Source of the DNA: Reclinomonas americana ATCC 50394
Taxonomy: Eukaryota
NCBI GenBank assembly: GCA_048213135.1
Contig: PS015203.1
Coordinates: forward strand, 118,670 to 138,669
DNA length: 20,000 bases
Reading direction: 5' to 3'
How positions within the stretch are numbered: the first letter of the stretch is position 1; each line of letters opens with the position of its first letter. The position numbers were made by a program, and so were the translations under genes. A model generated the notes under the pieces. That model saw nothing but the letters and a program-made list of their open reading frames with translations. It searched no databases and was not told the DNA's origin. Positions 1-19,432 of this stretch are shown piece by piece.

Positions 1-3000
1 CAACGCCATTCAACACACAGCACACCAGTCGCACAATCAGCCGCTGCACTCGTGACACTGCATCGCCACATCGTCCCGCAATCCACCCAGCAATCTCGTC
101 GTGCACTCGATACTCCATCACCACGTTGCTCTCCCTCACTTGCTCACCACACAACACACGAGCCACACTGTCCATGCTGCCACTGACACCCACCGCCATC
201 AGATTCGACAAGCACAGACCCTCCAGCACCTCCTCCACTCCGTCGTCACCACCGCCCACCAACTCATCACGCCGTGCACGCACTCGCTGCTCCTCCTCCT
301 CACTCAACTCGTCAAACTGCAGTCGCCCACCTACCGCCTCGGGCGCACGTCGTCGCCTCTGCCGTGCCAGCTCATGCAGTCGCAGTCGACGCACACACTG
401 ACTCAACTCCACCAGTCGACCTGCCGCTTCCTCATCTTCATCACCATCACCATCCACAACCACCGCCACATCGGGTATCACTCGCAGCACACCCAGTGCC
501 ACTCGTGCGAGTGCAGCAGTCACTGGCAAGCCGAGTTCCTTGCACGCCGTGATCAACACCAACAGACGACGCGCTGCTGCTGTCTGTGACATCACATTGC
601 GCTCCAGCAGCTGCGACAGCGCGTCGCCACCAATGCCACTCAGCACCTCCTCCAGTCGCGCGCCCACCAGGTGCGCTGGCGACTGGGACAGCAACCAGCT
701 GCATGCCAGAAGGGAGAGAGAAGAGTGAGTCTTCCCATCCACACCACTCTCCCACGCACTCAAAGCACTCACCCAATACAACCACTCACTCGCAGTGCAC
801 TCTTCTCCTGTTGTCCACTCTCCAGCGCTTCCACGATCCGTTTTCGTACATCCTGTGACACCTTGTGGAGCAGTCGCTCCTCCACCAGCTGCACAATATC
901 CTCGTTCTCCACGCTCTCCACTCGCACGCACTCGACCTCTGCCTCGTAAACCATCGAGTCACGAATCTCATCAGCCACTCGCTCATACCGACTCGTCACC
1001 ACGACGACCGGTGCCACCATTCCATCTGATGATGCACATCAAGTCAGGATCCAACATCCAAGCAAGAATGAGAGTTCTCTCTCATGAAATACACACCCTC
1101 ATCAGCACATTGAACAACATTCCTCACTTGCTCCGCCGATCCCACATTGTCCAGCACCATCACTCCACTCGATGCATGCATCAGCTGTCGCAGCAGTCGA
1201 CGTGCTGGCTCCACCTCGCCACTTGCCAGCAGCGCATCCACCTGACCGGCCATCCTTCTTCCCTCTACTTCATCCACACGCATCTGCGCCATCACAAAGG
1301 CACGAAGACACTCGCCAAGGGCACTCTCCGCCTACAGAATGTAGCAGGGAGAGAGAGTCAGAATGACAGTAGAAGGAGACGACGAAGCACGAATGACGAC
1401 ATGCATGTTCCATCAGCACACACCTTCACATGTTCCCTCGCATCGCCCACATGACCACGCATCTCCACCGACACGGCCGATCCCTTCCATCGACGAGTCG
1501 CCTGCAACTCGGTCACCAGCAGCTCCGCCAGGAACGACTTACCAGTGCCACCGTCACCCGTCAGCACCACCATGATTGGTTGATGGGCTGCACAAGAAAT
1601 CATCAACCACCAGACAACATGATGAGGCACACGAATGTGGAAGAAGGAGGGGAGAAGGAGAAGGAACACCCAACCTTCCACAGCGTCCACAATGCGTGTG
1701 GCGAGCGAGGAAGCCAGTGCACGCCGACTCGGGAAGCGGAATGTGGTCACCGGATTGACGGTGCGGGCGATAAGCGATGTCTTGGGTGGGCGGCTGCTGT
1801 CTAGTGCTGAGTGCCACAGAGGAGTGAGTGTATGAGCAGCAATGCACATTCAATGCAGATCTATCATGGCGCGCACCTGCAGCTGAGGGAGAAGAGGGAG
1901 AGATGCTCATTGTGTCAAATCGTTGGTGCATTTCCATTCGCATCTGATAAATGACAAGCAAGTGAGAAACTGATAGGTATCTGAAAGTTACCGCCTCATG
2001 AAAATCCACTCAACTTGCTCCATTTGTGCTAGCAGCAACGGCCGGTCCGCCTGACTCAGCGCACCTGCATTCACACACAACCAAGAGAGCATCAGCATCC
2101 ACATTCAATCCAAACACAAACAAGCATCAGCCATCTGTCTCTCTCCACTCACCATCACGAGCCTCGTTCAGCTGCACCACCAATTCTTCCTCCACATCCC
2201 TGCCAATCTGCAGCTGCCGCACAAGCTGATGCAGCTCGCCCTCTCCTCCTCCTCCTCCGAGCAGAGGCACAAAGAGTGCACGTGCTCGTGCTGGACTCGC
2301 TTGCTCAAACACCTCCCTCATTCGGTCAATCGCATTGCGCTGAGGCAATGAGAGAGTGAGAAACATAATCACACAGAGAGGGAGATCACACTCTTCCTCC
2401 TCCTTCCCATCTCGCCTCCCTCTACACACTCACCACATCACCAGCTGGAATCAGACGATCCGGCTCGTCTCGCGGGTGCTCTCGATGACCCGCCAGCAGC
2501 AAGATCGAGCAGCACAGCATCGCACCAAATGAACTGCAGTCGTGCAGCAGGCCTCGCTGACGCCACTCGCGCACCAGCTGACGCTCCTTCTCGTTCAACT
2601 GGACACATTTGGCCACTCCGTCTGGCATGGTGCTGCGCGTGGGGAAAGGGACAAACAAAGAGAGGATGCTGGCGAGTGAGGGAGATGTGCGACAAGAAAA
2701 AGGGGATTCATCAGGGATGGAATGTGGAGTCGTGTGGTGAAATAATGAAGAGTGAGAGATGGGGAGAAAGGGTGACCAGTGCAGTCACTATCTGCCACTT
2801 TCTAGCAATCTTCTCTCTTCTCTCTCTCACTCATTCACATCTCCATCTGCATCCTGCCATCGTGTGCTTCCACATCATCCCCACACACTCACCGCACATC
2901 ACGCTCACTCGGCGCCTTGCACCACTCGGCAACATGATTCACACCGGGATATGAATCGAGAAACGCCGGCAGCACTTGCTCGAGTTTGGATTGCAAAGCG

Positions 3001-3273
3001 CGGGTGCATGGATGAGACAGTGCCTTGGCAAGGCGAATCACGCATTCCTCATCACCAGCATCGTGATCATGACTGCACGGGAGAGGAGAGTGACAGGGAA
3101 CGGATCACACACACACACACACACACATACACATACACACACACACATACACATACACACACACATACACACACACAGTGTGAGAACGATGATGATGATG
3201 ACGATGATGCATCTGACAACAACATAATGAGGGAGACACGCAACTCACGCGGCACTCCACTCCCACTCGCCAT
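1..3273 (-). CDS. NLR-like STAND NTPase paralogue B (3' end outside window) with an N-terminal putative HEPN_DZIP3-like module
   Basis: Hand-spliced exons with consistent phases: 3273-~3245, 3072-2893, 2632-2434, 2339-2153, 2064-2015, 1943-1877, 1800-1675, 1587-1424, 1331-1097, 1025-773, 698-<1. Walker A VVLTGDGGTGKS, Walker B GVMVLDN, sensor-1 VVVVTSR. From 1800 downward it is colinear with paralogue A. The exon-1 donor is uncertain. Confidence 0.8.
3106..3177. repeat. (CA)n/(CATA) microsatellite in intron 1 of paralogue B
   Basis: Directly visible. Confidence 0.95.
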
Positions 3274-3334
3274 GATGATGTGTCACAATACAAGAACAAC
3301 ACCAGCACGATGCACCGAGGAGCACGCTCTCTTT

Positions 3335-3373
<39 letters not shown>

Positions 3374-3745: not shown

Positions 3746-6700
3746 TCACTGCTTCACGCCGGCTTCTCTAGCACGCCGCCGGCACTCGGCCAGTGCAGCA
3801 ACGGCCGCCATTGTATCGGAATGGCCTTCATCAAGGACCTTTTCCATACCACGCACACACTCCACCAGCAGCGCCTCCGCCTCGGCCCACCGCTGGTGCC
3901 TCATGAGCATGTCACCATAGTTACACATCGTCTCCAAAGTCTCTACATGCATTCTTCCAAGTACCACTCTATGTCCCTCCAAGCACTCTCGGTACAAATC
4001 TGCAGCTTCTGCCAGTGATTCCGGCGTGTTTTGTCGTTCCAGAGCATCAGCAAGATTGTTCATCGAGATGAGAGTGTCTGGATGCCGATCTCCCAGTTTC
4101 GAACGCGACAACTGCAAAGACTGTCTCTCAAGTTGAATCCTTTCCGCCAGACGACTGTCATCTTGAATAGATGCAGCAAGATTGCCCATGGACACCAAAG
4201 TGTCGAGATGCTCATCACCGAGAACCGATTGTCGCATGTCAAAGCATCGTCGGAAGACAGCTTCCGCATCGGTATATCCGCCGATATTAAAGTGATATTT
4301 GCCCTGCCAGTACATGGCCAATAGCGAGTCCGGATGACTGTCACCCAGTGTCGCACGCTGCCGCTCATGACACAGCACCAGTTGAGACAAGTTGTTTGAA
4401 TAGAATGCACACCACATCAAGCACCGCAACGTGTCAATCTTATCTAGCACAGTCATCTCGTCACCGTGATCTCTCTCCCACTCTTCGCACAGACGCCACG
4501 CCTGCTGCCACGCCGCTTTGCAATCAGCAGCCCGACGGAGCAACAACCAAGCTTGGCACTTTTCTGAAGCAATCGCTAATCGTCGTCGCAGTGGACTGAT
4601 CTCAACATCACCATCTTCACCTTCTCCACATTCTGACACTCGTCGCACAAGCAATGAGGCCACTGCGTCGTCAAATCCAACAGATGGCAATTTTCCTCCG
4701 ACACACTGCAAACCGATCCATCCCAAAGCTACACACTGTCCCAGCAACCCATTCACACCAACAGTATCACTCGCCCACATGTCGTCGTCGTCGCCCAACC
4801 TTCGCCACACAGTGTTCAGTACACTAAGCAAGTCACGCGACACCAAAAGCACACCATCACTGTCGTTTAGTGTATCAATGCCATTCAGCACACAACACAC
4901 CAGTCGCACAATCAGCCGCTGTGTCCTGGATACAGCATACTCCCACCGTCCAACAATCCACCTAGCAATCTCGTTGTCAACTTGATACTCAACAACAACA
5001 CCGCTCCGTTGCTCAATCGAGCCACACAGTATTTGGGCCAAACTATCCATGCTGCCACTGACTTCCACCGTTACCAGATTCGAGACGCACAGACCCTCAA
5101 GCACATCCTCCACTCCGTCGTCCTCACCACCACCACCACCCACCAACTCATCACGCCGTGCACGCACTCGCTGCTCCTCCTCCTCACTCAACTCGTCAAA
5201 CTGCAGTTCCTCACCCACCACCTCACGCGCATACCGTCGCCTCTCTCGAGCCAGCCCATGCAGTCGCAGTCGGCGAACACACTGACCCAACTCTACCAAC
5301 CGGGTTGCCGCCTCCTCATCTTCATCCGCAGCAGCCTGCCTACTATCACCACCGTCATCAGGAATCGCCAAATCGGGAATTACCCGCAACACACCCAGAG
5401 CCACTCGTGCAAAGCCTGGTGTCACTGGCAAGCCGAGTTCCTTGCACGCCGTGATCAGCACCAACCGACGACGTGCTTCTGCTGTCTGCGACATCACATT
5501 GTGTTCCAGCAGCTGCGACAGCGCCTCTTCACCAACGTCACGCAGGACTTCTTCCAGTCGTGCGCCGACCAGCTTTCCTGGAGACTGCGCATGCGACAGC
5601 AACCAGCTGCACCACAAGGAGAAGAGAGAAGAGTTAGGCATCACATCCACACCACTCTTACTCACCCAATCACTTACTTAACACAAGCGCTTACTCGCAA
5701 GGCACTCTTATTCTGCTGTCCGTTCTCCATCGCCTCCACAATCCGCCGTCGCACCGCTCCCGAAACCACTCCACGAAGTCGCTCTTCCACCAATTGCACA
5801 ATATCTTCTTTCTTCACATCCTTCACTTGCTCGCACTCCACAATTGCATGATGTTCCATCGAGTCACGAATCTCATCCGCCAACCACCCATGTCGACTCG
5901 TAACCACCACAATCGGTGCAACCAGTCCATCTGCACGTAGAAACACAGACACACACACGATGGACAAAAGGTCAGGACCAAACATCCAAGCAAGAATGGA
6001 TTTCTCTCTCACGCACACGCACCCTCGTCAGCACATTGAACAACATTCGTCACTTGCTCTGACGATCCCACATCGTCCAGCACCAATACTCCACTCGATG
6101 CATGCATCAGCTGTCGCAGGTGACGACGTGCTGGCTCCACCGCACTACTCGCCAGCAGCGCATCTACCTCACCGGCCATCCTTGGTCCCTCCTGTGTATC
6201 CACTCGCATCTTCGCCGTCACAAACGCACGCAGACACTCGCCCAGAGCACGCTCCGCCTGCAGCGCATGTCAAGAGAGACCAAGTCAGAAAGGCAACAGA
6301 AGGATCTCAGATGGTGCTTCAGGAAAGACAACATGCACCTTCACATGCTCTCTCGCATCACCCACATGGCCTCGCATCTCCACCTGCACGGCAGATCCTG
6401 TCCACCGACCGGTGGCCTGCAACTCGGTCACCACAAGGTCGGCCAGGAACGATTTGCCAGTGCCACCATCACCCGTCAGCACTACAATAATTGGACGTCT
6501 TGCTATAGACGTACATCGTCATCAAAGACAATTTGATAAGACAAATGAGTGTGGAAAAGAAAGAAAGACGGAAACGACCAACCTTCAGCAGCACACACTA
6601 TGCGTTCTGCAAGTGAGATTGCCAATGCACGGCGACTGGGGAATCGGTAAGTAGTCACTGGATTGATGATGCGGGCAATGAGCGGTGACCGAAGTACTGT

Positions 6701-7888
6701 GGCATCGAGTCAGTAACTGAGCACTGTAGAGTCCGTGCACCAGTGCAAATGTTGCTTGATACATGTACAGATAGTTTCTCTGCTGCTCACCTGGATGCAA
6801 GCGCAACCGAAACACGTTGAGCGCATACTCGGACAACCTGTGCCGCTGTACGGGTTCTTGTTGTCGGTCCAGTGGTTGCGCGTTGGGAATCAGAAGCCTG
6901 ACTTGTTCGTGCCAATCATGCAGCGGCAAGTGCCCGTGGCTATTGATGGCCGCAACGAGCGCTTGCGCATATGGCGATGTGTAAACTGCAACGCACCGAA
7001 CTTGCGCACGTCAGAAAAACCAGTAAACGGTACGACGGAATTCTAGTCGTGACGCACCGCCCTCGTATGCTTCCCAGCCGTGATAGCAAGCAAAACTAAC
7101 AAACACGTTTTGTGCCAGAACGCTCTCCTCAATCGGGCCCACACCTTGTTGGAAGATGCTTCGCCCAGGCGCACAGAGAACAAGTGAGAAACAACAACAC
7201 AAGCATCGCTCTGCAAAAACGTCTCACACCTATCGAAGGAACGACAACAGTTCGTTAACAAGACGATTACTGTGCGCGTTGACGCTTTCTGGCGCAGTTG
7301 GTTCATGCAGTTCGCGATAAGCTTTAGCGACGTTTTCCCTTTCATCTGTGCAGCTCGGGTCAATCCAAGACCCAGACAAAAAATCTGGGGAGGAAACAAA
7401 CTCACCAAACTATCTTTTGAGACACTGTTGACGTTGCTCGGAAGAAGCAGCAGGTCGCCGTTGATCGCAAGACCATGACCAGAGAAGAACAGCAGCACGC
7501 ATTCGCACTCCCCATTCACCTCCGTGGCTACGAACTCGTCAAGCACAGAGTTCATGGCATTGCCTTCCACATCGATACAAGGTGGGCTGACATGAAAGCC
7601 AATTCCAGCAAGCACTGGCTGCAACAGAGCTGCGCGATGCCAAGCAAATGTCAAGCACTGTCGGCTGACTGACATTCGAACGATTACGCACCCACATCAT
7701 GCGGGGGGTTACTCAGGGACCCAAACTCTCCTTCACCGTCGCAAGTGTTGCCAATGAGTAATGCCACACGCTTGTGTTGCCTGAAACAAAGACAGAGATC
7801 GTGTGAATACATAGCTCGCACAGAGATCTGACAACAACACAACGACAGTGACACGCAACTCACGCGGCACTCCACTCCCACTTGCCAT
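3746..7888 (-). CDS. NLR-like protein A: caspase-fold (peptidase C14) domain + STAND/NB-ARC-like NTPase + kinesin-light-chain-type TPRs
   Basis: Exons: 7888-~7860, 7780-7692, 7629-7406, 7345-~7229, ~7150-7058, 6985-6791, 6696-6583, 6502-6339, 6257-6023, 5930-5678, 5606-3746 (TGA). Caspase motifs KRVALLIGN, LSNPPHDV, LFFSGHG, LLLLP, VLLTNCCR, FVSFAC..G..AYEG, SPYAQAL, QQEP. NTPase motifs GDGGTGKS, VLVLDD, IVVVTSR. C-terminal LG..HPDTL repeats. The exon-1 junction and one internal junction are ambiguous. Confidence 0.88.
3790..4348 (-). repeat. About 4.5 coding TPR units of ~42 aa (KLC / TPR_10-12 type)
   Basis: LGDSHPDSL, LGDEHLDTL, LGDRHPDTL, LGRMHVETL and LDEGHSDTM recur at 42-45 aa spacing in ORF 3746..5665. 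Confidence 0.9.
6791..7780 (-). other. Caspase-like (C14, orthocaspase/paracaspase-type) domain of protein A, spread over 5 exons
   Basis: Catalytic His codon 7477-7475 (FSGHG) and Cys codon 7246-7244 (NCCR); p20-like and p10-like motifs occur in the expected order after splicing. Confidence 0.85.
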
Positions 7889-7938
7889 GATGATGCGTCA
7901 CAACAAGAATAACAGCAGCACCGGTGCACAGGGGGAAT

Positions 7939-7974
<36 letters not shown>

Positions 7975-8183
7975 CTCTCTCTCTCTCTCTCTCACTCAAT
8001 AACACACTGGGAAATCAAAAAACACACTGAATGCTCTCCTTTTCTCTCTTGCGCACACGCACGCAGTTGGGAATGCCAGTGAGACAGACAGGCAGAGAAC
8101 ACGCAAGCTCACTGCTGCTCAACAGCAGCAAACCAGTCGACCAAGTCGCAAACGACTCGAGTCTCGCAAACGAAACGACTCTC

Positions 8184-8393: not shown

Positions 8394-10601
8394 TCACTTT
8401 TTCACAAGCTGATCCGCCACCAACCACAACCCCGTCTCCTGCATGATCTCCACCTTGGTAATTACCCGCCCCAACACATGTACGACGGTGACGCCAAAGC
8501 CTTCCACCGACTCCGGCAGCAAATCGTTCTGCAGCAGCGACGCGAATCCCAGCGGACTGGTCACTTGCCGCATGTCGAACCAGTCGACACGCAGTCGGCC
8601 GAGTCGCGTGTGGTAGTCCAGCGAGAAGTTGAGCAGATCCTGCTCGTTCCACGTGGACCAGTGCACATCCAGGATGCCAATCATGTACGCCATCAGGCGC
8701 AATGAGTACACGGTCGGGCGTACGGCCAGCACGCCGCTGTTGATGCAAAAGTGGCGCTGATGTTCCTGACAGGCGGCGTATCGCTGAAAGGGAGACGAAG
8801 AGGAAAGAGAGTCAGAAAAGGAGAAAAGCATGGAGGAGAAGACGAAGAGGAAAGACAGTCAGAAAAGGAGAAAAGCATGGTGGAGACGACAAGGAGAGAG
8901 GTACTTCAGGGAAAGGAGAAAACCACGGAAGAGACGGGAGGTGCATCAGGGAAAGGAGAAAAAGCAAGGCGTTTGTAATCACAAACGTGTCGACAGCCAA
9001 TGAACCGGAACTCATGTGAGAGCGCAAACAATGGAGAATGCGAAACTGGTGATTCTAAAGACAGCACGCAACACACAAGAGAGTCTACGCGAATGGATAC
9101 AATGTGCAAACGGAAGCATGTTATATGACAATGCAGAAAGAAAATCGCCTTCTCCCTCACCCTCACCCTCACCCTCCCCTCCAACTCACCCACGACCCCT
9201 CCTCCGACGTACACGTCCCCGGTCCGACACTCCACGGCGCACGCACCCGCATCACCGGCGACAGCTTCACAAAATTGTCGGGATTGCAACTGCCGCAGCA
9301 GTCCGACATGACCCACACATCCGGCTGCACCGACGCCGCCGCACCGCGCAGCTGCGCCATCAACCGCAAGTCGTCCACCACCGGCGCATCGGCATCGGCG
9401 TGGAACGCCACAAAGCCACAGCGCAGGAGCAGGTACACGTAGAGCTCCTTCAGATTGATCTCGCCATGGAATCCCTCGGCCGCCATGCCCTTGCCAACGT
9501 GCCTGCCGCAAGAAAGGATGAGCAAAAAAGCACGCGCTCATCTTTCTCCTTCCCTCAGCGCACCACTGCGTCTCATCGAGAATGGCAACGGTGGGGAACA
9601 CATGACCGAGGTGCGCCACCACAATCTTGTGCGTGAACTGGTCGGCGCACACCACCAGCGGCAAGTGGCCGGGGTGCGAGCGCACGAAATGCGCCACCCA
9701 GTTAGCCAGCACCAGTACCCACGCCTGCCGCTGCTTCTCTGTCGCTGACGGCAACAAGAAGAACGTGGTGAAGACCACCATGCGCTCCCCATTTTCCAGC
9801 GTCAGCACAAAGTCGCCGTTGTGCAGGAGGTGGTGGTGGAGGCGGCGGAGGGCGTCGGCATTTTCGCGATACGCACTCGGCGGCGGGAAAAGGCCCAGCG
9901 GTTGCGGAGCATCGCTGTGGCCGAGTGCGGCTGCCGTCTCGGCGAGCACCGCGCGCGAGGTGAGTGCCGTCCACAGCACCTGCTCCGCCTGGAAGCACAA
10001 CGCCGAGGGGATGAATTCGGGTCGGAAGCGGCTGCCGGCGGGCGGCTGCATGCGATTGGGGAGGGGTGGTGGTTCGGCGATCGAGGCGCGCACCGAAAAG
10101 TCGGGGCCAATGTGTGAGCAGTCGCAGGTGGGTGGCGGGAGGCTTCCTGTGGGACATGAGGGAAAGGAGAGGGTAAGAGGGAAAGGTGGAGGGTATGAGG
10201 GAAAGGAGGGGGAGTGGGAGTGTGAGAGGGAGGGTAAGAGGGAAAGTTGAAGGGGAGGGAGAGCGGAGTGGAGAGAGGAAAGAGGGAGAGGGAGTGGGAG
10301 ATAGAAAAGGGGGGAGGGAAAAGTTAGAAGGGAGAATGAAAAGAATAAGGAGAGGGAGAGGGAGAGGGAGAGGGAGAGGGAGAGGGAGAGGGAGAGGGAG
10401 AGGGACAGTGAACAGGGTAAGAGAGACCGACAGATTGGAAAACAGAGGGTCAGTGAGGGAGCGGGAGAGAGGCAGCTACGCGTGACAGAGGGATAGACAG
10501 ACGGAGAGAGATCCATAGACGATACTGCTAGTTGTGGCAGGAGACGGAGAAAAAGAAAGAAAAGAGACACAAGGCAGGCAAATAGACGGTCAGTGAGAAA
10601 G

Positions 10602-10677
<76 letters not shown>

Positions 10678-10680
10678 GTC

Positions 10681-10726
<46 letters not shown>

Positions 10727-13624
10727 GAGGCAGGCAGTGTGTGTGTGTGTGCGCGTGAGAGAGATGGAGAGAGAGATTGAATCAAGAAGACACGAAGAAC
10801 AGTGAGTACGAAGGCACATGGTATGAGAGAAAGTGAAGCAGACAGTCCTCACTCCACGGTAATGTTGCAGGAAACACACCATCGGTGGTCGCCGACGGGA
10901 GAGTCAGACACGCCAGGTTGCACAGCGCATCGTCCTTGGTGGCGCTCGCCAACGTGGAGTGAATCATCGAGCCGCCATACATCCACTCGGAGAACACAAT
11001 GCGCGGATGTGTGACAGATGTGGGTGGTATGTGCAGCAGCGCAGCATATGGTGACTCGGCCGGTAGCACGCTTGTTGTTTGGCGTGGGGTGTGGAGGTGC
11101 TGCGGTGCAGGCAAAGGAGGTGAGAGCGGGGAAGAGGGGGAAAGAGGGAAAGGGAGGGAGGGAGGAAGAAAAGGGGAAAAGGGGAGAGGGGAAGAGGGGG
11201 AAAGAGGGGAAGGAGGGGAAGGAGGGGAAGGAGGGGAAGGAGGGGAAGGAGGGGAAGGAGGGGAANNNNNNNNNNNNNNNNNNNNNNNNNNNNNNNNNNN
11301 NNNNNNNNNNNNNNNNNNNNNNNNNNNNNNNNNNNNNNNNNNNNNNNNNNNNNNNNNNNNNNNNNNNNNNNNNNNNNNNNNNNNNNNNNNNNNNNNNNNN
11401 NNNNNNNNNNNNNNNNNNNNNNNNNNNNNNNNNNNNNNNNNNNNNNNNNNNNNNNNNNNNNNNNNNNNNGAAGGAGGGGAAGGAGGGGGAAGGGAGGGGG
11501 AATGAGGGGGAAGGGAGGGGGGAGGAGGGGAAGGAGGGGAAGGAGGGGAAGAGGGGAAGAGGGGAAGGAGGGGAAGGAGGGGAAGAGGGGAAGAGGGGAA
11601 GAGGGGAAGAGGGGAAGAGGGGAAGAGGGGAAGAGGGGAAGAGGGGAAGAGGGGAAGAGGAGAAGAGAGGATGAGGGGAAGAGGGAATGACGAATGGAGA
11701 GAAGGAGAGACAAGGAGGCAGAGAGACTTGCTGAGAGCACGAGGGCAAAAGTACAGAGAAAAGGTGCAGAAGTGACGGCAGGAAGAGGGCGACATGGAGA
11801 GGGAGAAGCAGCGGGAGATCCGCGAGGGGAAGAGTGTGTGAATGAGAAGGAAACAAACGAAAGAGACAGAGAGAGACAGAGAGAGCGAGAGAGAGAGAGA
11901 GACGGGGGAGATAAAGAGAGATAGGAGTGGGAGAGAGCGACAAAGAAGCGAGAGGCGAATATGCTTTGGAGTAGAGAAGGAGAGTGCAGAGAGGAATTGA
12001 ACATAGAAGAGCGGGAGGAGGAGGGAGAGAAGGAGGGAGGAAGAGCACACGAACACAGAACGAGTGGGCAGTTCTCTCAAAGGAGTCGAAGCACACACAG
12101 ACTTGCATTCGTGGAAAACCTCACCTTACTAAAATACGCCCGCAACATCTTCGGCATGGAGCAGTGCGCCTTGGCGATCTGCACAATACAGTGAGCAGAC
12201 CGGAGAAGCATTCGTGGGGCGAGTGGCAAACCATGTTGACATCCATGTCCAGTCTCTGAATCACCGCATCTTTCACTGCCAGAGGCAGCCCATAGTCGGC
12301 CAGAAACTTGTCAACTGTGATGATAAAAAGGGGTGAACAGCAATCACTCTTGTGCGCGAGTACTATTACGCAGCAACATATTCCACGGGAGCAGGACTAG
12401 TTGCGGCTCTCTATCTGTCTGGCAGTGCAGTGCTGCTCTCTTTCTTTGGGTTCTCTTCCCTCCATCGCCGGTGTGACAGCCGCAGGCAGATACCTGCAGG
12501 TCTTCCCTCCCTCTCTCCCCCTCCTCCCCCACCCACCTGAATCACCCACAGTCTTCCCATGATTGAGCTTCAGCTCCATCGGGAACCCCAACGCCGGAAT
12601 CGTCAGCTGCACGCCAGTGAAGAACGGCAGCGTCCACAACGGCGTGTCGTCCCGAACATACACTCGACAGTCGCTGTCGACCTGCAACAGCGGCTGCGTA
12701 GCATCGCGCTCGTGCTGCTGCTGTTGCAGCGACGGTGATGGCGGTGGCGTCAGCTTGACATTCGGATCCTGGACGACACACGACAAGAGTCAGCGATGTG
12801 ATGCATCGCAGCACAGAGTGACGAGGGGACGCACCGTAAGTTGCGCAAGGACCGAATCGCACAGACGCTGCTCTTCGGCTGCCGTCCACATGCGATGCTG
12901 TTGCAGGAAGGCGCGTGCTGTGAAGGCAAGGGGAGAGTGAGGGGAGGGCAAGGGAGAGGGAGGGGGAAGGGAAAGGAGGAGAGAGAGGGGAAGGCGGAGA
13001 GGGAGGGAGTGAGAGAGGGGAAGAGATAAAGAGGGAGAAAGAGAATGAGTGAGTGCGAGAGGGAGAGAGGAAATGAGAGAAAGAGAGAGAAGGAGACGCA
13101 GAGCAAGAGGGGAAAGAGGGGGAAGAGAGAGGAAGAGAGGGGAAGGAGGGGGAAAGAGGGAGAAAGAGGGAGAAAGAGGGAGAAAGAGGGGAAGAGAGGA
13201 TGGGAGGATGAGAGGATGTGGATATGAGGGGTAAGGGGAAGTGGACGACGAGGGAAGAGGGGAAGAGGAGAGCGAGAACGAGAGAATGAAAGAGAGAACG
13301 AAAGAGAGAAGGAGAGCGAGGGAGTGAGTGAGCGTGAGAGAGAAAGGGAATAAGCGTCACAGAGTAAAGGAAATGCAGAGTGAGTGAGAGAGTGAGGGAG
13401 TGTGTGAACGAGAGGAGGCAGAGTGCGTAAGGCAGAGCGAGAACGAGGAAGTGGATGTTTGTGAGATAGCCAGAGAGAGAAGATGAAGAACAAAGAGGGA
13501 CGGGAAGTGCGAGGGATGTACATGTGAGAGGGCAAGAGAACGAGAGAATGCATGGCACAGAGAGCGAACGAGTGAAGCAATGCAGAAAGAGCGAGTGGCT
13601 GCATGTGCGAGAGGTAGAAAGTGG

Positions 13625-13655
<31 letters not shown>

Positions 13656-13759
13656 TGCGTGGAAGCATGAGAGATAGAGGAAGACAGAAGGAGAAAGAAA
13701 GCGAACGAGTGATGGAGAAACACAAAGAGCGCAAATCAGTGAATGCTGAGTGAGTGAGG

Positions 13760-13808
<49 letters not shown>

Positions 13809-14160
13809 GACGTGGTGAAGTACGAGTGAGTGAGTGCGTGTGCGAGGGCAAGTGAGTGGAAGCACGAGAGAGGAAGAAAGAAGGAGAAAAGAAAGCGAAC
13901 GAGTGACTGAGAAGCATAAAGAGCATCAGTGAAAGAAATGCAGAGAGAGAGCGAAGGACAGAGAGAGAATGCACGCGAGGGAATGAGTGAATGACTGCAG
14001 GCGCGCTTTATCCGTCGCCTACCAATGCACATGCCTGCAGAATCTCTCTCCCATTCTCCCTTACTCTCTCTCTTTCTCACAATCCCAAAGCACTGCCTCT
14101 CTCTCTCTCTCACACACACAGTCCCAAAGCACGCCTTCCCTCACTCTTACGCACACTCTC

Positions 14161-14208
<48 letters not shown>

Positions 14209-14228
14209 NNNNNNNNNNNNNNNNNNNN

Positions 14229-14259
<31 letters not shown>

Positions 14260-14500
14260 TCTCCATCCTTCTTCCCTTCCTCCCCCTCCCTCTCTCCTCC
14301 TCTCCTCCTCTCTCTCTCTCTCTAACACACGCACATACACACACGCACACACACACACACACAGAATCATGCTCTCTCTCTCTCTCTCAGTCCATCTGCA
14401 GGTTGCTTCTCTCCCTCTTCCCCTTCCTCCCTCCTTCCTCTCTCTCTCCCTCCCTCCCTTCTTCCTCCCTCCCTCCTCTCTCCTCCTTCTCTCTCTCCCT

Positions 14501-14541
<41 letters not shown>

Positions 14542-14740
14542 TCTCACCTGCATCCGCAATCGTCTCATGCTCCTCAAACAACAGCGGCACCGACCCGAGC
14601 GAATCCGTCATGTACACCCACACTCCACTCCAGCCGCGCTCGCGAAACGGCGACAGAGAGGTGCGAGCAGAGTCACTCGAGGAGCACGAGACAGAGAGGG
14701 AAAGGAGAAAGAGGAGGAAGAGGATGGGAGGAGAACGCAT
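8394..14740 (-). CDS. Nucleotide-diphospho-sugar transferase (GT77 / PF03407-like) with predicted signal peptide and long N-terminal extension
   Basis: Exons: 14740-14548, 12917-12835, 12768-12537, 12314-12232, 12178-12125, 11099-10853, 10146-9564, 9502-9190, 8783-8394, all phase-compatible. N-terminus MRSPPILFLLFLLSLSVSCSS. GT motifs KELYVYLLLRCGFVAFHADAD (DxD), INSG, NEQDLLN and H...K..IMQETGLW. The C-terminal exons are better supported than the upstream linkage; an N gap lies in two of the introns. Confidence 0.78.
8791..8965. repeat. Intronic purine-rich minisatellite (~48-bp units)
   Basis: gacgaagaggaaaga(g/c)agtcagaaaaggagaaaagcatgg occurs twice, followed by two cagggaaaggagaaaa variants. 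Confidence 0.85.
10330..10760. repeat. Intronic microsatellites (GGGAGA)n, (GA)n, (GACA)n, (GT)n
   Basis: Directly visible. Confidence 0.95.
11125..11680. repeat. (GGAGGGGAA)n/(GAGGGGAA)n satellite spanning assembly gap 11266-11469
   Basis: Directly visible; the N run is flanked by the same repeat. Confidence 0.95.
14160..14540. repeat. (CT)n tract with small gap 14209-14228, intron 1 of the glycosyltransferase
   Basis: Directly visible. Confidence 0.95.
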
Positions 14741-15792: not shown

Positions 15793-15873
15793 CGCGCCGG
15801 GCATGATTTGAACATGCGCGGGTCTCCCCAGTTGATTTCGAGTCAACCGCCTTAACCGCTCGGCCACCGACGC
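15793..15873 (-). tRNA. tRNA-Ser(CGA), intronless
   Basis: GCGTCGG-TGGCCGAGCGGTTAAGGCG-GTTGA-CT CGA AA-TCAAC-long variable arm-GCATG TTCAAAT CATGC-CCGGCGC-G. All stems pair, the discriminator is G, and an oligo-T tract follows. Confidence 0.96.
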
Positions 15874-16010: not shown

Positions 16011-19000
16011 ATGGCAGACGACGACGACGACTATCATGGCGATCACGCGGGCGGCTCCGGCTCTCGTTCGCGCCCTCCACGCACGTTTTTCTTTCGCACG
16101 GCCTCGACCATCTACACACACGTGGCGCGAGTGCTGCGTGAGACAGCAGGCGAGTGGACAGAGGTGATCGCCACGAGCACTGGAAAATCATCGCAGCAGC
16201 GGCCTCAATCTGCTGCATTTCCCGCCAAAACCGCGCCGGTGACACTGCGCGCGGATTTGTGGTTGTTGTCGCGTTGGGAGGTTCCGTGGGCGTCGATTGC
16301 AACAGAGACGGCCGTCAATCACATTCGCGGGACGAATCAGATTACGGTGAAGGGATTGCTGATCAAATCGTTGGGATCGCTGACGGGAAGGGAGCTGTCG
16401 TTTGTGCCGGAGACGTTTGTGGTGGTGCCGGGGGGTGCGGGCTCGGAGTTGGATGAGAGGGAGGTGTTTGTGCAGGTGAGGGAAAAGGGGGGGAAGAAAG
16501 GGGAAGGAAGATGGAGGGGAAGGGAGGGTGGAGGGGAAGGGAGAGAGAGAGGAGAAGGGAGGGGGAGAAGGAGGGAGGGAGATAAGGGGGAAGGGAGGAG
16601 GGGCTGCGAGAGAAGCCGTGATCATTCGAGAACGTCTTGTCTCTCCTTGCTTAGCTGACGGACGAGTGTACAGAGAGGAGAGAGGGAGGGAGAGAAGGAG
16701 AAGGGCGGGGGGAGAGGGAGGGCTGCGAGAGAAGCCGTGTTCATTCGCGAACGTCTTGTCTCTCTCCCTCCCTCCCTCCTCTCTGTGCACTCGTCCTTCC
16801 GCTGAGTAAGGAGAGAAGAGAGATGACAGGAAGAGGTGAGTGTCGCAGGAAGAGATGAAAGACAAGAGTATGACAAGGGAAAATACGAAAAACGAAGAAA
16901 GAGAGACACGAGAGACAGAGAGAAAGAGGAGAAGAGAAGAGTCATTCTAGTGCAAAGAGATGACTTGAAGAGGGAATGGAGAGAAGGAGAAGGGAGGGGG
17001 GAGAGGGAGGGCTGCGAAAGAAGCCGTGTTCAATCGAGAACGTCTTGTCTCTCCTTACTCAGCGGAAGGGCGAGTGCACAAGGGAGAGATAAGGGGGAAG
17101 GGAGGAGGGGAAGGGAGAGAAGCCGTGTTCATTCGAGAACGTCTTGTCTCTCCTTACTCAGCTGAAGGACGAGTGCACAGAGAGGAGGGAGGGAGGGAGG
17201 GAGAGAGAAGGAGAAGGGAGGAGGGGAAGGGAGAGAAGCCGTGTTCATTCGAGAATGTCTTGTCTCCCCTTGCTCAGCGGAAGGACGAGTGCAGAGAGAG
17301 GAGGGAGGGAGGGAGGGAGGGAGGCGAAAGAACACGTCGCCATGTTGTTTCAAGTTGTCTTTCCTTGCTTCAACTGAGGGAGGGAGTGGGAGGGATGCGA
17401 GAACGACTTTTCTTTCCTTGCTTTCATGACTCGCAGCTTCGCGAGGCAGGCACGAAAGGAGGAGAAGCGAGATGGGAAGAATTGGCTGCGACTTGGAGAG
17501 AGTGAAAGAGAAGGCAGAGAGACGATGCCGTGTTGTGTTTTCGTCTTCTCCTTCTCCGTTTTTTCTTCTTCTTCTTCTCTCCAACTCCATCGCTTCCTCT
17601 TTTCCGTCTTCTTCGCCTTCTCTCTCTCTCTCTTTGTGGTTCTGAATGATGATAAGGACGGAGAGTGCAGCATTCTCTCGCCGTTGTCCTCCACCTCCTC
17701 TCATCCTTTTCTCCTTCTGCGCTTACTTTTTCTCTCTCCATCTCTGTCTCTCTCTTTCTCGCTGAGAGACAAGAAAGACTGTGACTTGACGGTGAGAAGG
17801 CAGAGAGTCGGTCGAGAGACAACACTGAGTTGATTCAAGAACGACTTGTCTTTCCTTACTTCGGCGAGACAGGAGACAGAAAGTGGGTAGAGGCGACGCC
17901 GTGTTGTGTCACGTATGCGTGTCATTTCTTGCTTCCGCTTCCGCGCGCGTGCGAGAGAGAGAGATACACACACACACACACAAACAGAAGAGAAGCGATA
18001 GGAATAGACTTTGTCTCCAGGGTGAGAGTGAAACAAGAAGAGAGGTATGAGTGTGGAGATTCTCTTTCCTTGCTTTCTCAAGCACGCCGCTGAGAGAGTG
18101 AGCGCGAGTTTGTCTTGATGCCGCAGAAGCAGAGCGACAGCAGAGAAGAGTATATCGCAGACTCTCCGTGCCAGTGTCTCAGTCGTGTTTGAGGAAGAGA
18201 GTACTCGTGAAGATGTCGTGGCTTTCTTCTTCACAAATGTTTGCTGCAGAGTCTCAACGGCGACTTGTCCTTCATGCTTTCCCCTGCGCCCTCTGCTTCC
18301 GCACCCACAAATGAAACCATCACCCTCATCTGTCCCTCCCTTTCCCCTGTCCCTTTCCCCTCTCTAACCCCATCCCCCCTTCCCCCTTCCCTTTCCCCCC
18401 TCTTCCCCCTTCTCCCCTCTCTCACCCTTTCCCCTTCACCCTTCCCTCCCAGGCCGCCTCTCGCGAAGGCTCCACCTCCGTCTGGCTCTGCAAACCCACC
18501 AACGGCGGCCACGGCACCGGCATTGAGCTGTTTCGCGACCCCGCCGCGGCCATTGCGTACGTCGAGTCGCACCTGGCCGAAGATACCACCGAGGAGACGG
18601 AGGTCACGGCCTCCGCCGCAGCAGAGTTGCACCCTCCTCTTCCTCCTTTGCTATGAACTTACCTCACTCACCTCTCCCTCTCCAGCAAACCCTGGAAGCG
18701 CCCACGACAGAAGCGCCCGCCGGCGGCCTGGGTCGTGCAGCGATGCATCGAGCGCCCGCTGCTCTTCCCACCCTCTCTCCGCAAATTCGACATTCGCTTC
18801 CTCGCCGCCATCACGCACGACATGCAGCTGCTGTGGTATCGGCGGTACATTATGCGCATGTGCTCCGAGCCGTACGACTTGTCGCAGCTGGACAATCGCT
18901 TCTCCCACATTTCGAACCACTGCGGTACGTCCTCCACCTGCTTCCCCCCTCCCCCTCTTCCCCCTTCCCTCACTACGCGCACACCGCAGTGCAAACGGCC

Positions 19001-19432
19001 AGCGAATCGTACGGCCGCGAGGAGCTCGGCAACGAGCGCTTCACCGAGCACCTCGCGCAGCACCTGCAAGAGGCGCACGGCGAGGTGCGCGGTCGCCAGC
19101 TGCTGGAGCACATTGAGCGGCAGATGCGCAACATTGTGCGCGTGACGGTCGGCGCCTGCATGGACCACATTCGTGGCGACAAGGACTACCTCGCGTTCCA
19201 GCTGCTCGGCTACGACTTTCTCATTGACGAGAATCACCACGTGTGGCTGCTGGAGGTCAACGGCAGTCCGGCGTGCGCCGACAGCATGGCCGACAAGTTT
19301 GCGTGCGATGTCATTGCCTCGGTGGTGCAGCGCGCGTTTCCGCCGATTGCCGAGGGTGTGGACCTCGGCGGCGCACCGAGCCTCTTTGAGGAGATGAGGT
19401 GGGAGGAGGAGGAGCAGGAGGAAGCGGATTAG
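16011..19432 (+). CDS. TTL: Tubulin-tyrosine ligase
   Basis: Exons 16011-16475, 18453-18625, 18686-18924, 18990-19432. Motifs VNHIRG..QITVK, FVPETF, DEREVF, WLCKP..GGHGTGI, WVVQRCIERPLL..RKFDIR, HISNHCVQ...YG.EE.GNE and FQLLGYDFLIDE..VWLLEVNGSPACA; the NHC.Q/YG..E.GNE and NG.PAC features point to TTL proper rather than other TTLLs. Confidence 0.9.
16600..17300. repeat. Intronic ~70-bp repeat family (5 direct copies plus 1 inverted half-copy) with GA-rich spacers
   Basis: agaagccgtgttcattcgagaacgtcttgtctctccttactcagcggaaggacgagtgca(c/g)aga near 16611, 16730 (5' half), 17020, 17117 and 17234; reverse complement of the 3' half at 16781-16814. Confidence 0.9.

Follow-up and report, generated by a model that had tools for sequence, protein, structure and literature searches.

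A predicted paracaspase-like protease, NB-ARC-like NTPase and TPR protein encoded by an intron-rich gene of Reclinomonas americana

A gene on the minus strand of contig PS015203.1 of Reclinomonas americana ATCC 50394 (assembly GCA_048213135.1), here called gene A, on balance probably encodes an all-in-one NLR-like STAND protein that combines a C14 cysteine protease, an NB-ARC-like P-loop nucleoside triphosphatase (NTPase) and tetratricopeptide repeats (TPRs) in one predicted chain. The gene lies in a stretch of 20,000 nucleotides (nt; positions 118,670 to 138,669 of the contig), referred to as the window, whose first letter is position 1 of all coordinates given below. From approximately 7900 down to 3746 the minus strand displays a series of open pieces with the frame changing between them, which ten GT-AG introns of 60-94 nt, placed by eye and with a script, join into a single open frame of 1126 codons. 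The N-terminal part of the product would be a C14 cysteine protease of the p20 type, similar to paracaspases and orthocaspases, in which the His-Cys dyad is intact. A P-loop NTPase would follow, whose Walker A, Walker B, sensor and GLPL-like motifs are NB-ARC-like, and 42-residue TPRs would form a C-terminal array. The span 6791-7780, in which the original prediction had seen a bacterial-type caspase domain fused to a STAND NTPase-TPR, coincides exactly with exons 2-6 of gene A, and it is confirmed as a genuine Peptidase_C14 domain spread over these five exons. Taken as a whole, that earlier interpretation is partly supported, as detailed below.

The C14 domain and its specificity pocket

The read-through piece 7043-7696 has PF00656 (Peptidase_C14) as its sole significant Pfam match, with 30.1 bits against a cut-off of 21.4 (E=4.8e-7), which is the profile comparison that had been proposed as a check of the caspase assignment. 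An exhaustive phmmer search of 1.84 billion proteins, using as query a 132-residue colinear piece (exons 3 and 4 with the in-frame intron 3 between them), returned eight matches at E<=1e-3, the best at 4.0e-6 (43 bits); seven of them carry PF00656 themselves (E from 6e-26 to 1e-69), and the eighth is an LRR protein without it. The spliced domain can be aligned end to end with homologues and scores 94.6 bits over positions 2-221 of a profile of five homologues from which its own sequence was excluded; of 200 shuffled controls, 114 scored at all, with a maximum of 1.4 bits. Pairwise identity to the closest homologues is approximately 21-27%. As a lead only, 23 of 30 language-model neighbours are C14 clusters, mostly bacterial. 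The NCBIfam model caspase_w_EACC1 stayed below threshold (16.5 bits against 140), and the PADLOC caspase model gave E=0.035.

All five exons could be assigned to parts of the domain. Exon 2 (7692..7780, on the minus strand like every other feature of gene A) carries the first C14 strand, with RVALLIGN (7747-7770) and NPPHD (7696-7710), and was placed by homologue alignment, its correspondence to MALT1 coming from a profile alignment. Exon 3 (7406..7629), recognised by PF00656 and the alignments, is the C14 core with FFSGHG (7472-7489), in which the codon of the catalytic His, CAT, occupies 7475-7477. By alignment, exon 4 (7230..7345) contributes a helix and a strand and has TNCCRS (7238-7255) at its end, where Asn (AAC, 7250-7252) is followed by Cys (7247-7249), the aligned catalytic Cys (TGT, 7244-7246) and Arg (7241-7243). 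The alignments, that with MALT1 included, assign the following C14 strand and an EAYEG loop to exon 5 (7058..7158), and the C-terminal helices, with TSPYAQAL (6957-6980) and then Q-x-P, to exon 6 (6791..6985). The motifs on which the original prediction was built (RVALLIGN, L.NP..D, SGHG, SP...AL and Q.P, the second of them being NPPHD) were all located on the minus strand, each falling within one exon.

Intron 3 (7346..7405), a GT-AG intron of 60 nt recognised by inspection, is in frame and free of stops, and its retention would add 20 residues to the loop between the catalytic His and Cys, leaving the protein unbroken. With this intron retained, the domain scores 85.8 bits against the homologue profile, versus 94.6 bits when spliced, and the same Cys is aligned both ways.

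FFSGHG and TNCCRS align with the (F/Y)(S/A)GHG and D(A/C/S)C(R/H/F) of the homologues, so that the dyad would be formed by the His and the second Cys, both intact as had been claimed. Instead of the DxCR of the paracaspase/orthocaspase type, gene A reads N-C-C-R, with the Arg present and the Asp replaced by Asn, a substitution that the original prediction had also read. Among 31 distinct C14 domains compared, a small sample dominated by relatives of one bacterial protein, His and Cys are both present in 26; 25 of these have Asp two residues before the Cys, and Asn is found in gene A only. The attribution of this residue to the S1 pocket agrees with the structures described in the extracts of PMC4357240 used here, in which the pocket of MALT1 is formed by Asp365, Asp462 and Glu500 and that of TbMCA2 includes Asp95 and Asp211, the caspase-7 equivalents being Arg87, Gln184 and Arg233. 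Alignment places the Asp of NPPHD at MALT1 Asp365, the Glu of EAYEG at Glu500 and the Asn at the Asp462 position, that is, two of the three acidic positions are kept, in a pocket whose geometry is predicted from the sequence alone. We infer that the S1 pocket is still acidic and changed only in part. Cleavage after Arg or Lys is probably the most likely specificity, possibly in weakened or shifted form: a P1 preference for basic residues would be retained because two of the three acidic S1 residues are kept, and because in MALT1 the P1 Arg receives its hydrogen bonds from Asp365, Gly416, Ala498 and Glu500, with Asp462 merely lining the pocket (PMC4357240, in the same extracts). A natural change from Asp to Asn at a specificity-pocket position would amount to a natural experiment on P1 preference in the para/metacaspase branch.

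The same substitution allows another reading, which we consider unlikely, namely that the loss of the S1 Asp, perhaps together with other changes, ended useful proteolysis and left a pseudo-protease whose only function, as in pseudo-orthocaspases, would be oligomerisation or recruitment. Indeed, all 25 other related domains with both His and Cys have Asp in place of this Asn, at a position belonging to the S1 pocket in both MALT1 (Asp462) and TbMCA2 (Asp211; PMC4357240), and even among the dead tandem domains in the comparison three have kept the Asp and one has Glu. Inactive variants are described as common among bacterial homologues in the parts of PMC5756287 cited here, and dead copies occur in the homologues P0001, P0002, P0004, P0006 and P0009. 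However, the pseudo-variants known from those parts of the same review substitute the His and the Cys themselves, whereas gene A keeps the His with its following Gly, the Cys with its following Arg and the two other acidic S1 residues, and the Asp that it lacks is one that in MALT1 lines the pocket without bonding the P1 Arg (PMC4357240).

The NTPase-TPR body, its fusion to the protease and a tandem paralogue

Downstream of the protease, exon 6 ends in phase 1, and after a GT-AG intron of 94 nt exon 7 (6583..6696) begins with the remaining two bases of the split codon. By comparison with a paralogue (see below), exon 7 is the first part of a module common to both genes and forms a linker helix before the P-loop. 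Exon 8 (6339..6502) carries the Walker A motif or P-loop, GDGGTGKS (6450-6473), exon 9 (6023..6257; aligned to the paralogue without gaps, at 86.8% identity) the Walker B motif VLVLDDV (6069-6089), and exon 10 (5678..5930), placed by paralogue comparison, the sensor-1-like VVVTSRH (5890-5910) with the subsequent helices. Exon 11 (3746..5606) comprises the GLPL-like ELGLPVT (5420-5440), a helical region of approximately 300 residues, the TPRs (approximately 3770-4540) and the stop codon. These motifs stand in the order of the NB-ARC set, which we take to be Walker A, an hhhhDD Walker B, a TTR/TSR sensor and a GLPL-like motif. Correspondingly, a profile of six bacterial NB-ARC proteins scores 12.5 bits from the P-loop to Walker B, against no more than 0.0 bits in 200 shuffles; the NACHT comparison set consisted of one protein, and the scoring of NB-ARC versus NACHT is limited accordingly.

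The C-terminal repeats match TPR_10 at E=1.9e-25 (88.5 bits) and TPR_12 at E=5.6e-21, and the NCBIfam model FxSxx_TPR at E=1e-23, which is under the cut-off of that model. The helical region of exon 11 that lies before them has no family match, and phmmer found nothing for residues 1-380 among solved structures. In fungal NLRs, according to the extracts of PMC4986451 consulted, the repeats preferentially found after NB-ARC are TPRs of 42 residues. On its motifs and its TPR partner, we call the NTPase NB-ARC-like. The tripartite layout of an effector, an NTPase and C-terminal repeats is found in the predicted, splice-phase-consistent model with its TPR_10 match of 88.5 bits. Of the claimed fusion to a STAND NTPase-TPR, what stands is the presence in one predicted gene of a P-loop NTPase with NB-ARC-like motifs and of TPRs; the assignment to STAND by a family model at its cut-off does not.

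Gene A is followed by a tandem paralogue, gene B (1..3273, minus strand), recognised by blastn and a threaded model, the 3' end of which lies beyond the window. The two genes are 76% identical over gene A 4876-6687 and gene B 1-1779 and approximately 77% identical in the first-exon region (gene A 7826-7997, gene B 3211-3371), with no match in the middle. The gene B model, with nine introns, all GT-AG, and 713 stop-free codons, starts with the same first exon of 29 nt and reaches the NTPase by way of four exons that encode a different N-terminal domain. This domain, of approximately 225 residues and apparently all-helical, is unrelated to the caspase domain, and its pieces have no Pfam family match; it could represent a new type of effector or adaptor in the receptor family. 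Gap columns between the two genes number zero in exons 7-9, 7-46 in the introns, 4 in exon 10 and 55 in exon 11. Over the shared exons, the ratio of nonsynonymous to synonymous divergence (dN/dS) is 0.29, with a dS of 0.53, and both copies are therefore under constraint. On the predicted models, genes A and B have the sensor body in common and differ by an exchange of effector domains at the intron before exon 7, and the layout of gene B supports the model of gene A. Such a tandem pair points to possible receptor diversification by exon shuffling. In gene B the Walker B motif reads VMVLDNV (approximately 1157-1177, minus strand), as compared with VLVLDDV in gene A; the second acidic residue is lost, and the NTPase of gene B may therefore have little hydrolytic activity or stay fixed in a single state.

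Several observations weigh against the reading of gene A as a single-chain protease-STAND-TPR receptor. No STAND model reached its cut-off on the 77-residue P-loop piece: the Pfam P-loop families on exon 8 (AAA_16, NPHP3_N, nSTAND3, NB-ARC and NACHT) gave E-values from 5.8e-4 to 0.2, all under cut-off, with NB-ARC at E=0.054 and 13.2 bits versus 23.5, NACHT at 11.9 versus 26.7, nSTAND3 at 15.8 versus 27.2 and NPHP3_N at 18.8 versus 24.8. The P-loop piece of gene B gives the same picture, and it has to be considered that the NTPase domain is spread over five exons and that the STAND models were scored on single exon pieces of it. A phmmer comparison of the spliced NTPase region with ten bacterial open reading frames (ORFs) of STAND proteins gave no match, and no NTPase-TPR relative was found in word-seeded protein searches (queried with the caspase piece, against longer proteins and against proteins of similar length, and with the non-TPR part of exon 11, none reaching threshold) or in metagenome scans with exon 11 and exon 3. 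On the side of the protease, the 132-residue piece and exon 3 alone found only chance-level, non-C14 matches among solved structures by phmmer, and the link to solved structures is therefore made via a profile only; single-sequence AlphaFold2 modelling, which covered the 132-residue colinear piece only, ended at a mean pLDDT of 35.1. The Asp-to-Asn change is a single base (GAC to AAC) in a single copy, within a draft assembly that has 224 N in the window. The splice junctions of gene A are predicted from the DNA, and the acceptor of the intron preceding exon 5, AAG, is unusual. The model is weakest at the N-terminus, as the putative exon 1 (7860..7888; 29 nt, with the start codon and nine and two-thirds codons in all, and approximately 77% identity to the first-exon region of the paralogue) needs a weak GTTGCG donor situated 4 nt past a consensus GTGAGT; in both genes, the GTGAGT donor would bring exon 2 out of frame with an early stop, and only GTTGCG joins the exons in frame. 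If the intron after exon 6 stayed unspliced, the frame would end at approximately 6585 and yield a caspase-only product of approximately 320 residues. Finally, it is by inference that oligomerisation-driven activation, substrates and a biological role are assigned to the protein.

The points on splicing also bear on a further alternative, in which the fusion is an artefact of the gene model and the caspase exons form a separate small gene, or just the unspliced product mentioned above, next to a neighbouring NTPase-TPR gene. Its appeal is increased by the description of eukaryotic p20-only homologues as consisting of the p20 domain alone so far, at least in the cited parts of PMC5756287. Yet the caspase and NTPase parts are just 94 nt apart, and the GT-AG intron between them joins exons 6 and 7 in phase. 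Likewise, the translation of exons 7 and 8 has no Met before the P-loop, because of which these exons would offer the NTPase no independent start, and the paralogue repeats the layout identically, with the shared first exon, another effector domain and the same NTPase. We therefore regard an artefactual fusion as improbable.

Affinities, origin and proposed mode of action

The affinities of the protease within C14 were examined with a profile, A3, made of exon 3 and the five homologues, in which the homologues dominate; the gene A domain scores 94.6 bits against the homologues alone. The best solved match of this profile is MALT1 (E=1.2e-23, 87.3 bits, positions 2-221), followed by caspase-1 (3.9e-7), metacaspase-9 (8e-6), GSU0716 (1.7e-4) and MCA2 (2e-4). 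In the available parts of PMC5756287, DxCR is typical of paracaspases and of many prokaryotic homologues, and DxCH of metacaspases. Gene A has neither the QACxG and basic S1 pocket of the C14A caspases, its motif being N-C-C-R-S and its aligned S1 positions Asp and Glu, nor the combination of DxCH and a metacaspase-type p10 region, as Arg follows its Cys; its sole caspase-like trait is the Asn at the position of caspase-7 Gln184. By similarity, the predicted domain is supported as bacterial/paracaspase-type, as the original prediction had it, and not as a metacaspase. That it could nevertheless be an ordinary, vertically inherited eukaryotic metacaspase of type I, II or III, adjoining the NTPase by chance, might be argued from the fact that Pfam does not resolve the C14 subfamilies and that metacaspases are the usual C14 members in non-animal eukaryotes (PMC3734836 and PMC5756287, in the parts cited); this is very improbable, given that the Cys is followed by R and not by the H of DxCH, that the profile covers solved metacaspases over its first approximately 80 positions only (24-29 bits) versus 220 positions of MALT1 (87 bits), and that none of the eight matches among the 1.84 billion proteins bears a metacaspase-type name.

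As to the relatives themselves, one of the seven C14 matches agrees at 100% identity with a protein encoded in a Rhizobiaceae genome bin and has relatives in bins of Alphaproteobacteria, Bacteroidales and Burkholderiales; another has an FGE-sulfatase fusion, of a kind common among bacterial caspase homologues in the extracts of PMC3501461; one comes from the bdelloid rotifer Adineta ricciae; and the remaining four are unnamed and without an FGE-sulfatase fusion. The bacterial match and the bacterial-style fusion could suggest that the gene was recently transferred from a bacterium or that the assembly is contaminated with bacterial DNA, but this reading is disfavoured to the point of being hardly credible by the 19 GT-AG introns modelled across both paralogues, by the 21-27% identity to even the closest homologues, by a GC content at third codon positions of 0.59 in the caspase exons versus 0.535 in the rest of gene A, and by eukaryote-like neighbours (spacers rich in microsatellites and a tubulin-tyrosine-ligase-family gene broken by an intron or a change of frame). 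At such distances, either a transfer, as the original prediction had suggested, or an ancient presence of the gene could fit the similarities.

If gene A does encode a single-chain receptor, its architecture, together with the analogy to MALT1, caspase-9 and bacterial proteins, makes a ligand-gated protease activated by oligomerisation the most likely mode of action. Specifically, the TPR array would keep the protein inactive as long as no ligand or modified self protein is bound; upon binding, an exchange of nucleotide would allow the NTPase domains to oligomerise, and the resulting proximity would activate the protease domains, as dimerisation does for MALT1 and caspase-9. Cleavage of substrates would follow, most likely within a cell-death, immunity or non-self-recognition response.

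Bacterial caspase homologues are the closest precedent for such a layout, as they include fusions to NACHT (15 sequences), NB-ARC (two Chloroflexus sequences) and WD40 or TPR in the extracts of PMC3501461. The bacterial caspase-STAND proteins share with the gene A model the one-chain order of a C14 protease, a P-loop STAND-type NTPase and a repeat sensor, and bacterial caspase homologues also share the p20-type domain with Arg after the Cys; the nearest relatives of gene A include a proven bacterial protein and the match with the FGE-sulfatase fusion. In contrast, gene A is eukaryotic, has ten introns, carries Asn for a conserved Asp and is 21-27% identical to its closest C14 homologues, and the bacterial C14 matches are secreted-looking tandem-caspase or FGE-sulfatase proteins and not STAND fusions. 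None of the ten bacterial STAND ORFs compared carries a C14 domain of the gene A type, nor did the searches find a direct relative of the whole architecture. Among paracaspases, MALT1 (type 1), the best solved profile match, resembles gene A in the Arg after the Cys, in the kept equivalents of Asp365 and Glu500 and, as regards the proposed mechanism, in its activation by induced proximity. It differs in that gene A is without death or Ig domains and has Asn at the Asp462 position, and single exon pieces of gene A have no significant pairwise match to MALT1; the eukaryotic p20-only type 2 paracaspases and metacaspase-like proteases differ in being described as free of further domains (PMC5756287).

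Among eukaryotic receptors, the fungal protease NLRs of the HET-Q2 type are likewise all-in-one proteins with a protease, a NOD and repeats, and fungal NLRs also show effector swapping between paralogues and NB-ARC domains with 42-residue TPRs. However, the protease of gene A belongs to Peptidase_C14 and not to CHAT or S8, and C14 is absent from the 12 and the 19 N-terminal classes of fungal NLRs given in the cited parts of PMC4986451 and PMC9815663, respectively. Fungal NLRs with N-terminal S8 or CHAT proteases often adjoin gasdermin genes (Clavé et al. preprint, 10.1101/2021.06.03.446900, in the part available), whereas the search for gasdermin-like domains or other evident substrate genes that had been suggested for gene A detected none among the 64 ORF pieces of the window, a scan that intron-split genes could escape. 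The Apaf-1/caspase-9 apoptosome combines an AP-ATPase-type switch with a repeat sensor and has an oligomerisation that activates a caspase-fold protease, as would be the case for gene A. It differs from gene A, where protease and switch are predicted to form a single chain and a CARD adaptor is absent, the repeats are TPR and not WD40, and S1 is acidic and not basic. In a limited literature search, no eukaryotic single chain with C14, STAND and TPR parts was found to be described; the supplementary tables of fungal NLR and gasdermin studies could list such proteins. Gene A appears to be a eukaryotic, intronised version of an architecture that is well known in bacteria and hardly described in eukaryotes.

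Animal caspase-fold proteases are switched on by STAND platforms such as the apoptosome and the inflammasome through adaptor domains, and a direct fusion of protease and STAND sensor is frequent in bacteria. To our knowledge, the fused proteases described so far in fungi are of the CHAT or subtilisin type. Gene A, if the fusion is true, would add a third, bridging case and offer a simple system for proximity-induced activation. A wider proposal, which we put forward tentatively and hold to be rather doubtful, is that of a eukaryotic family of single-chain "apoptosome-in-one" receptors, in which an NB-ARC-like/TPR body is fused to a paracaspase-like protease with a remodelled S1 pocket (Asp to Asn, providing an amide as does the caspase Gln), and in which paralogues swap the protease for other death-type effectors by exon shuffling at one intron. 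Such a family would contradict the published claim that eukaryotic p20-only homologues never carry extra domains, a 2017 review stating, in the parts cited here, that extra domains occur only in prokaryotic orthocaspases and that the eukaryotic p20-only proteins are p20 alone (PMC5756287). It would also connect the caspase-STAND immunity proteins of bacteria, in a way open to direct testing, with the adaptor-based apoptosomes and inflammasomes of eukaryotes.

First-exon variants and surroundings of gene A

At the 5' end of gene A, a second in-frame ATG near 7811 could serve as an alternative start, and a 26-nt version of exon 1 was discarded, as its donor would read TG and not GT. The paired donors GTGAGT/GTTGCG occur at 7855-7888 and again at 3240-3273 (both minus strand) and could reflect alternative 5' splice-site regulation or an upstream ORF. 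On the 3' side of gene A, there are two TGTAA motifs, approximately the number expected by chance.

The DNA of the whole window is eukaryote-looking, with a GC content of 47-65% per kilobase. Upstream of the caspase gene, the ORF piece 8394-8858 (minus strand), which matches Nucleotid_trans below threshold (PF03407, 20.6 bits versus a cut-off of 22), is probably an exon of a glycosyltransferase gene. Purine/pyrimidine-rich DNA with GA/CT-rich microsatellites, short-period repeats and two N runs extends over several kilobases at 10100-14600 and 17081-17323; no coding signal was detected in these two regions, and a unit of 116 nt is repeated there in 2.1 copies of 92% identity. A tRNA-Ser with the anticodon CGA lies at 15793-15873 on the minus strand (Rfam, 57.6 bits, confirmed by ARAGORN). 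The tubulin-tyrosine-ligase-family gene at 18527-19432 on the plus strand is read in two frames (Pfam TTL, 1.9e-16 and 3.1e-13) and is probably split by an intron.

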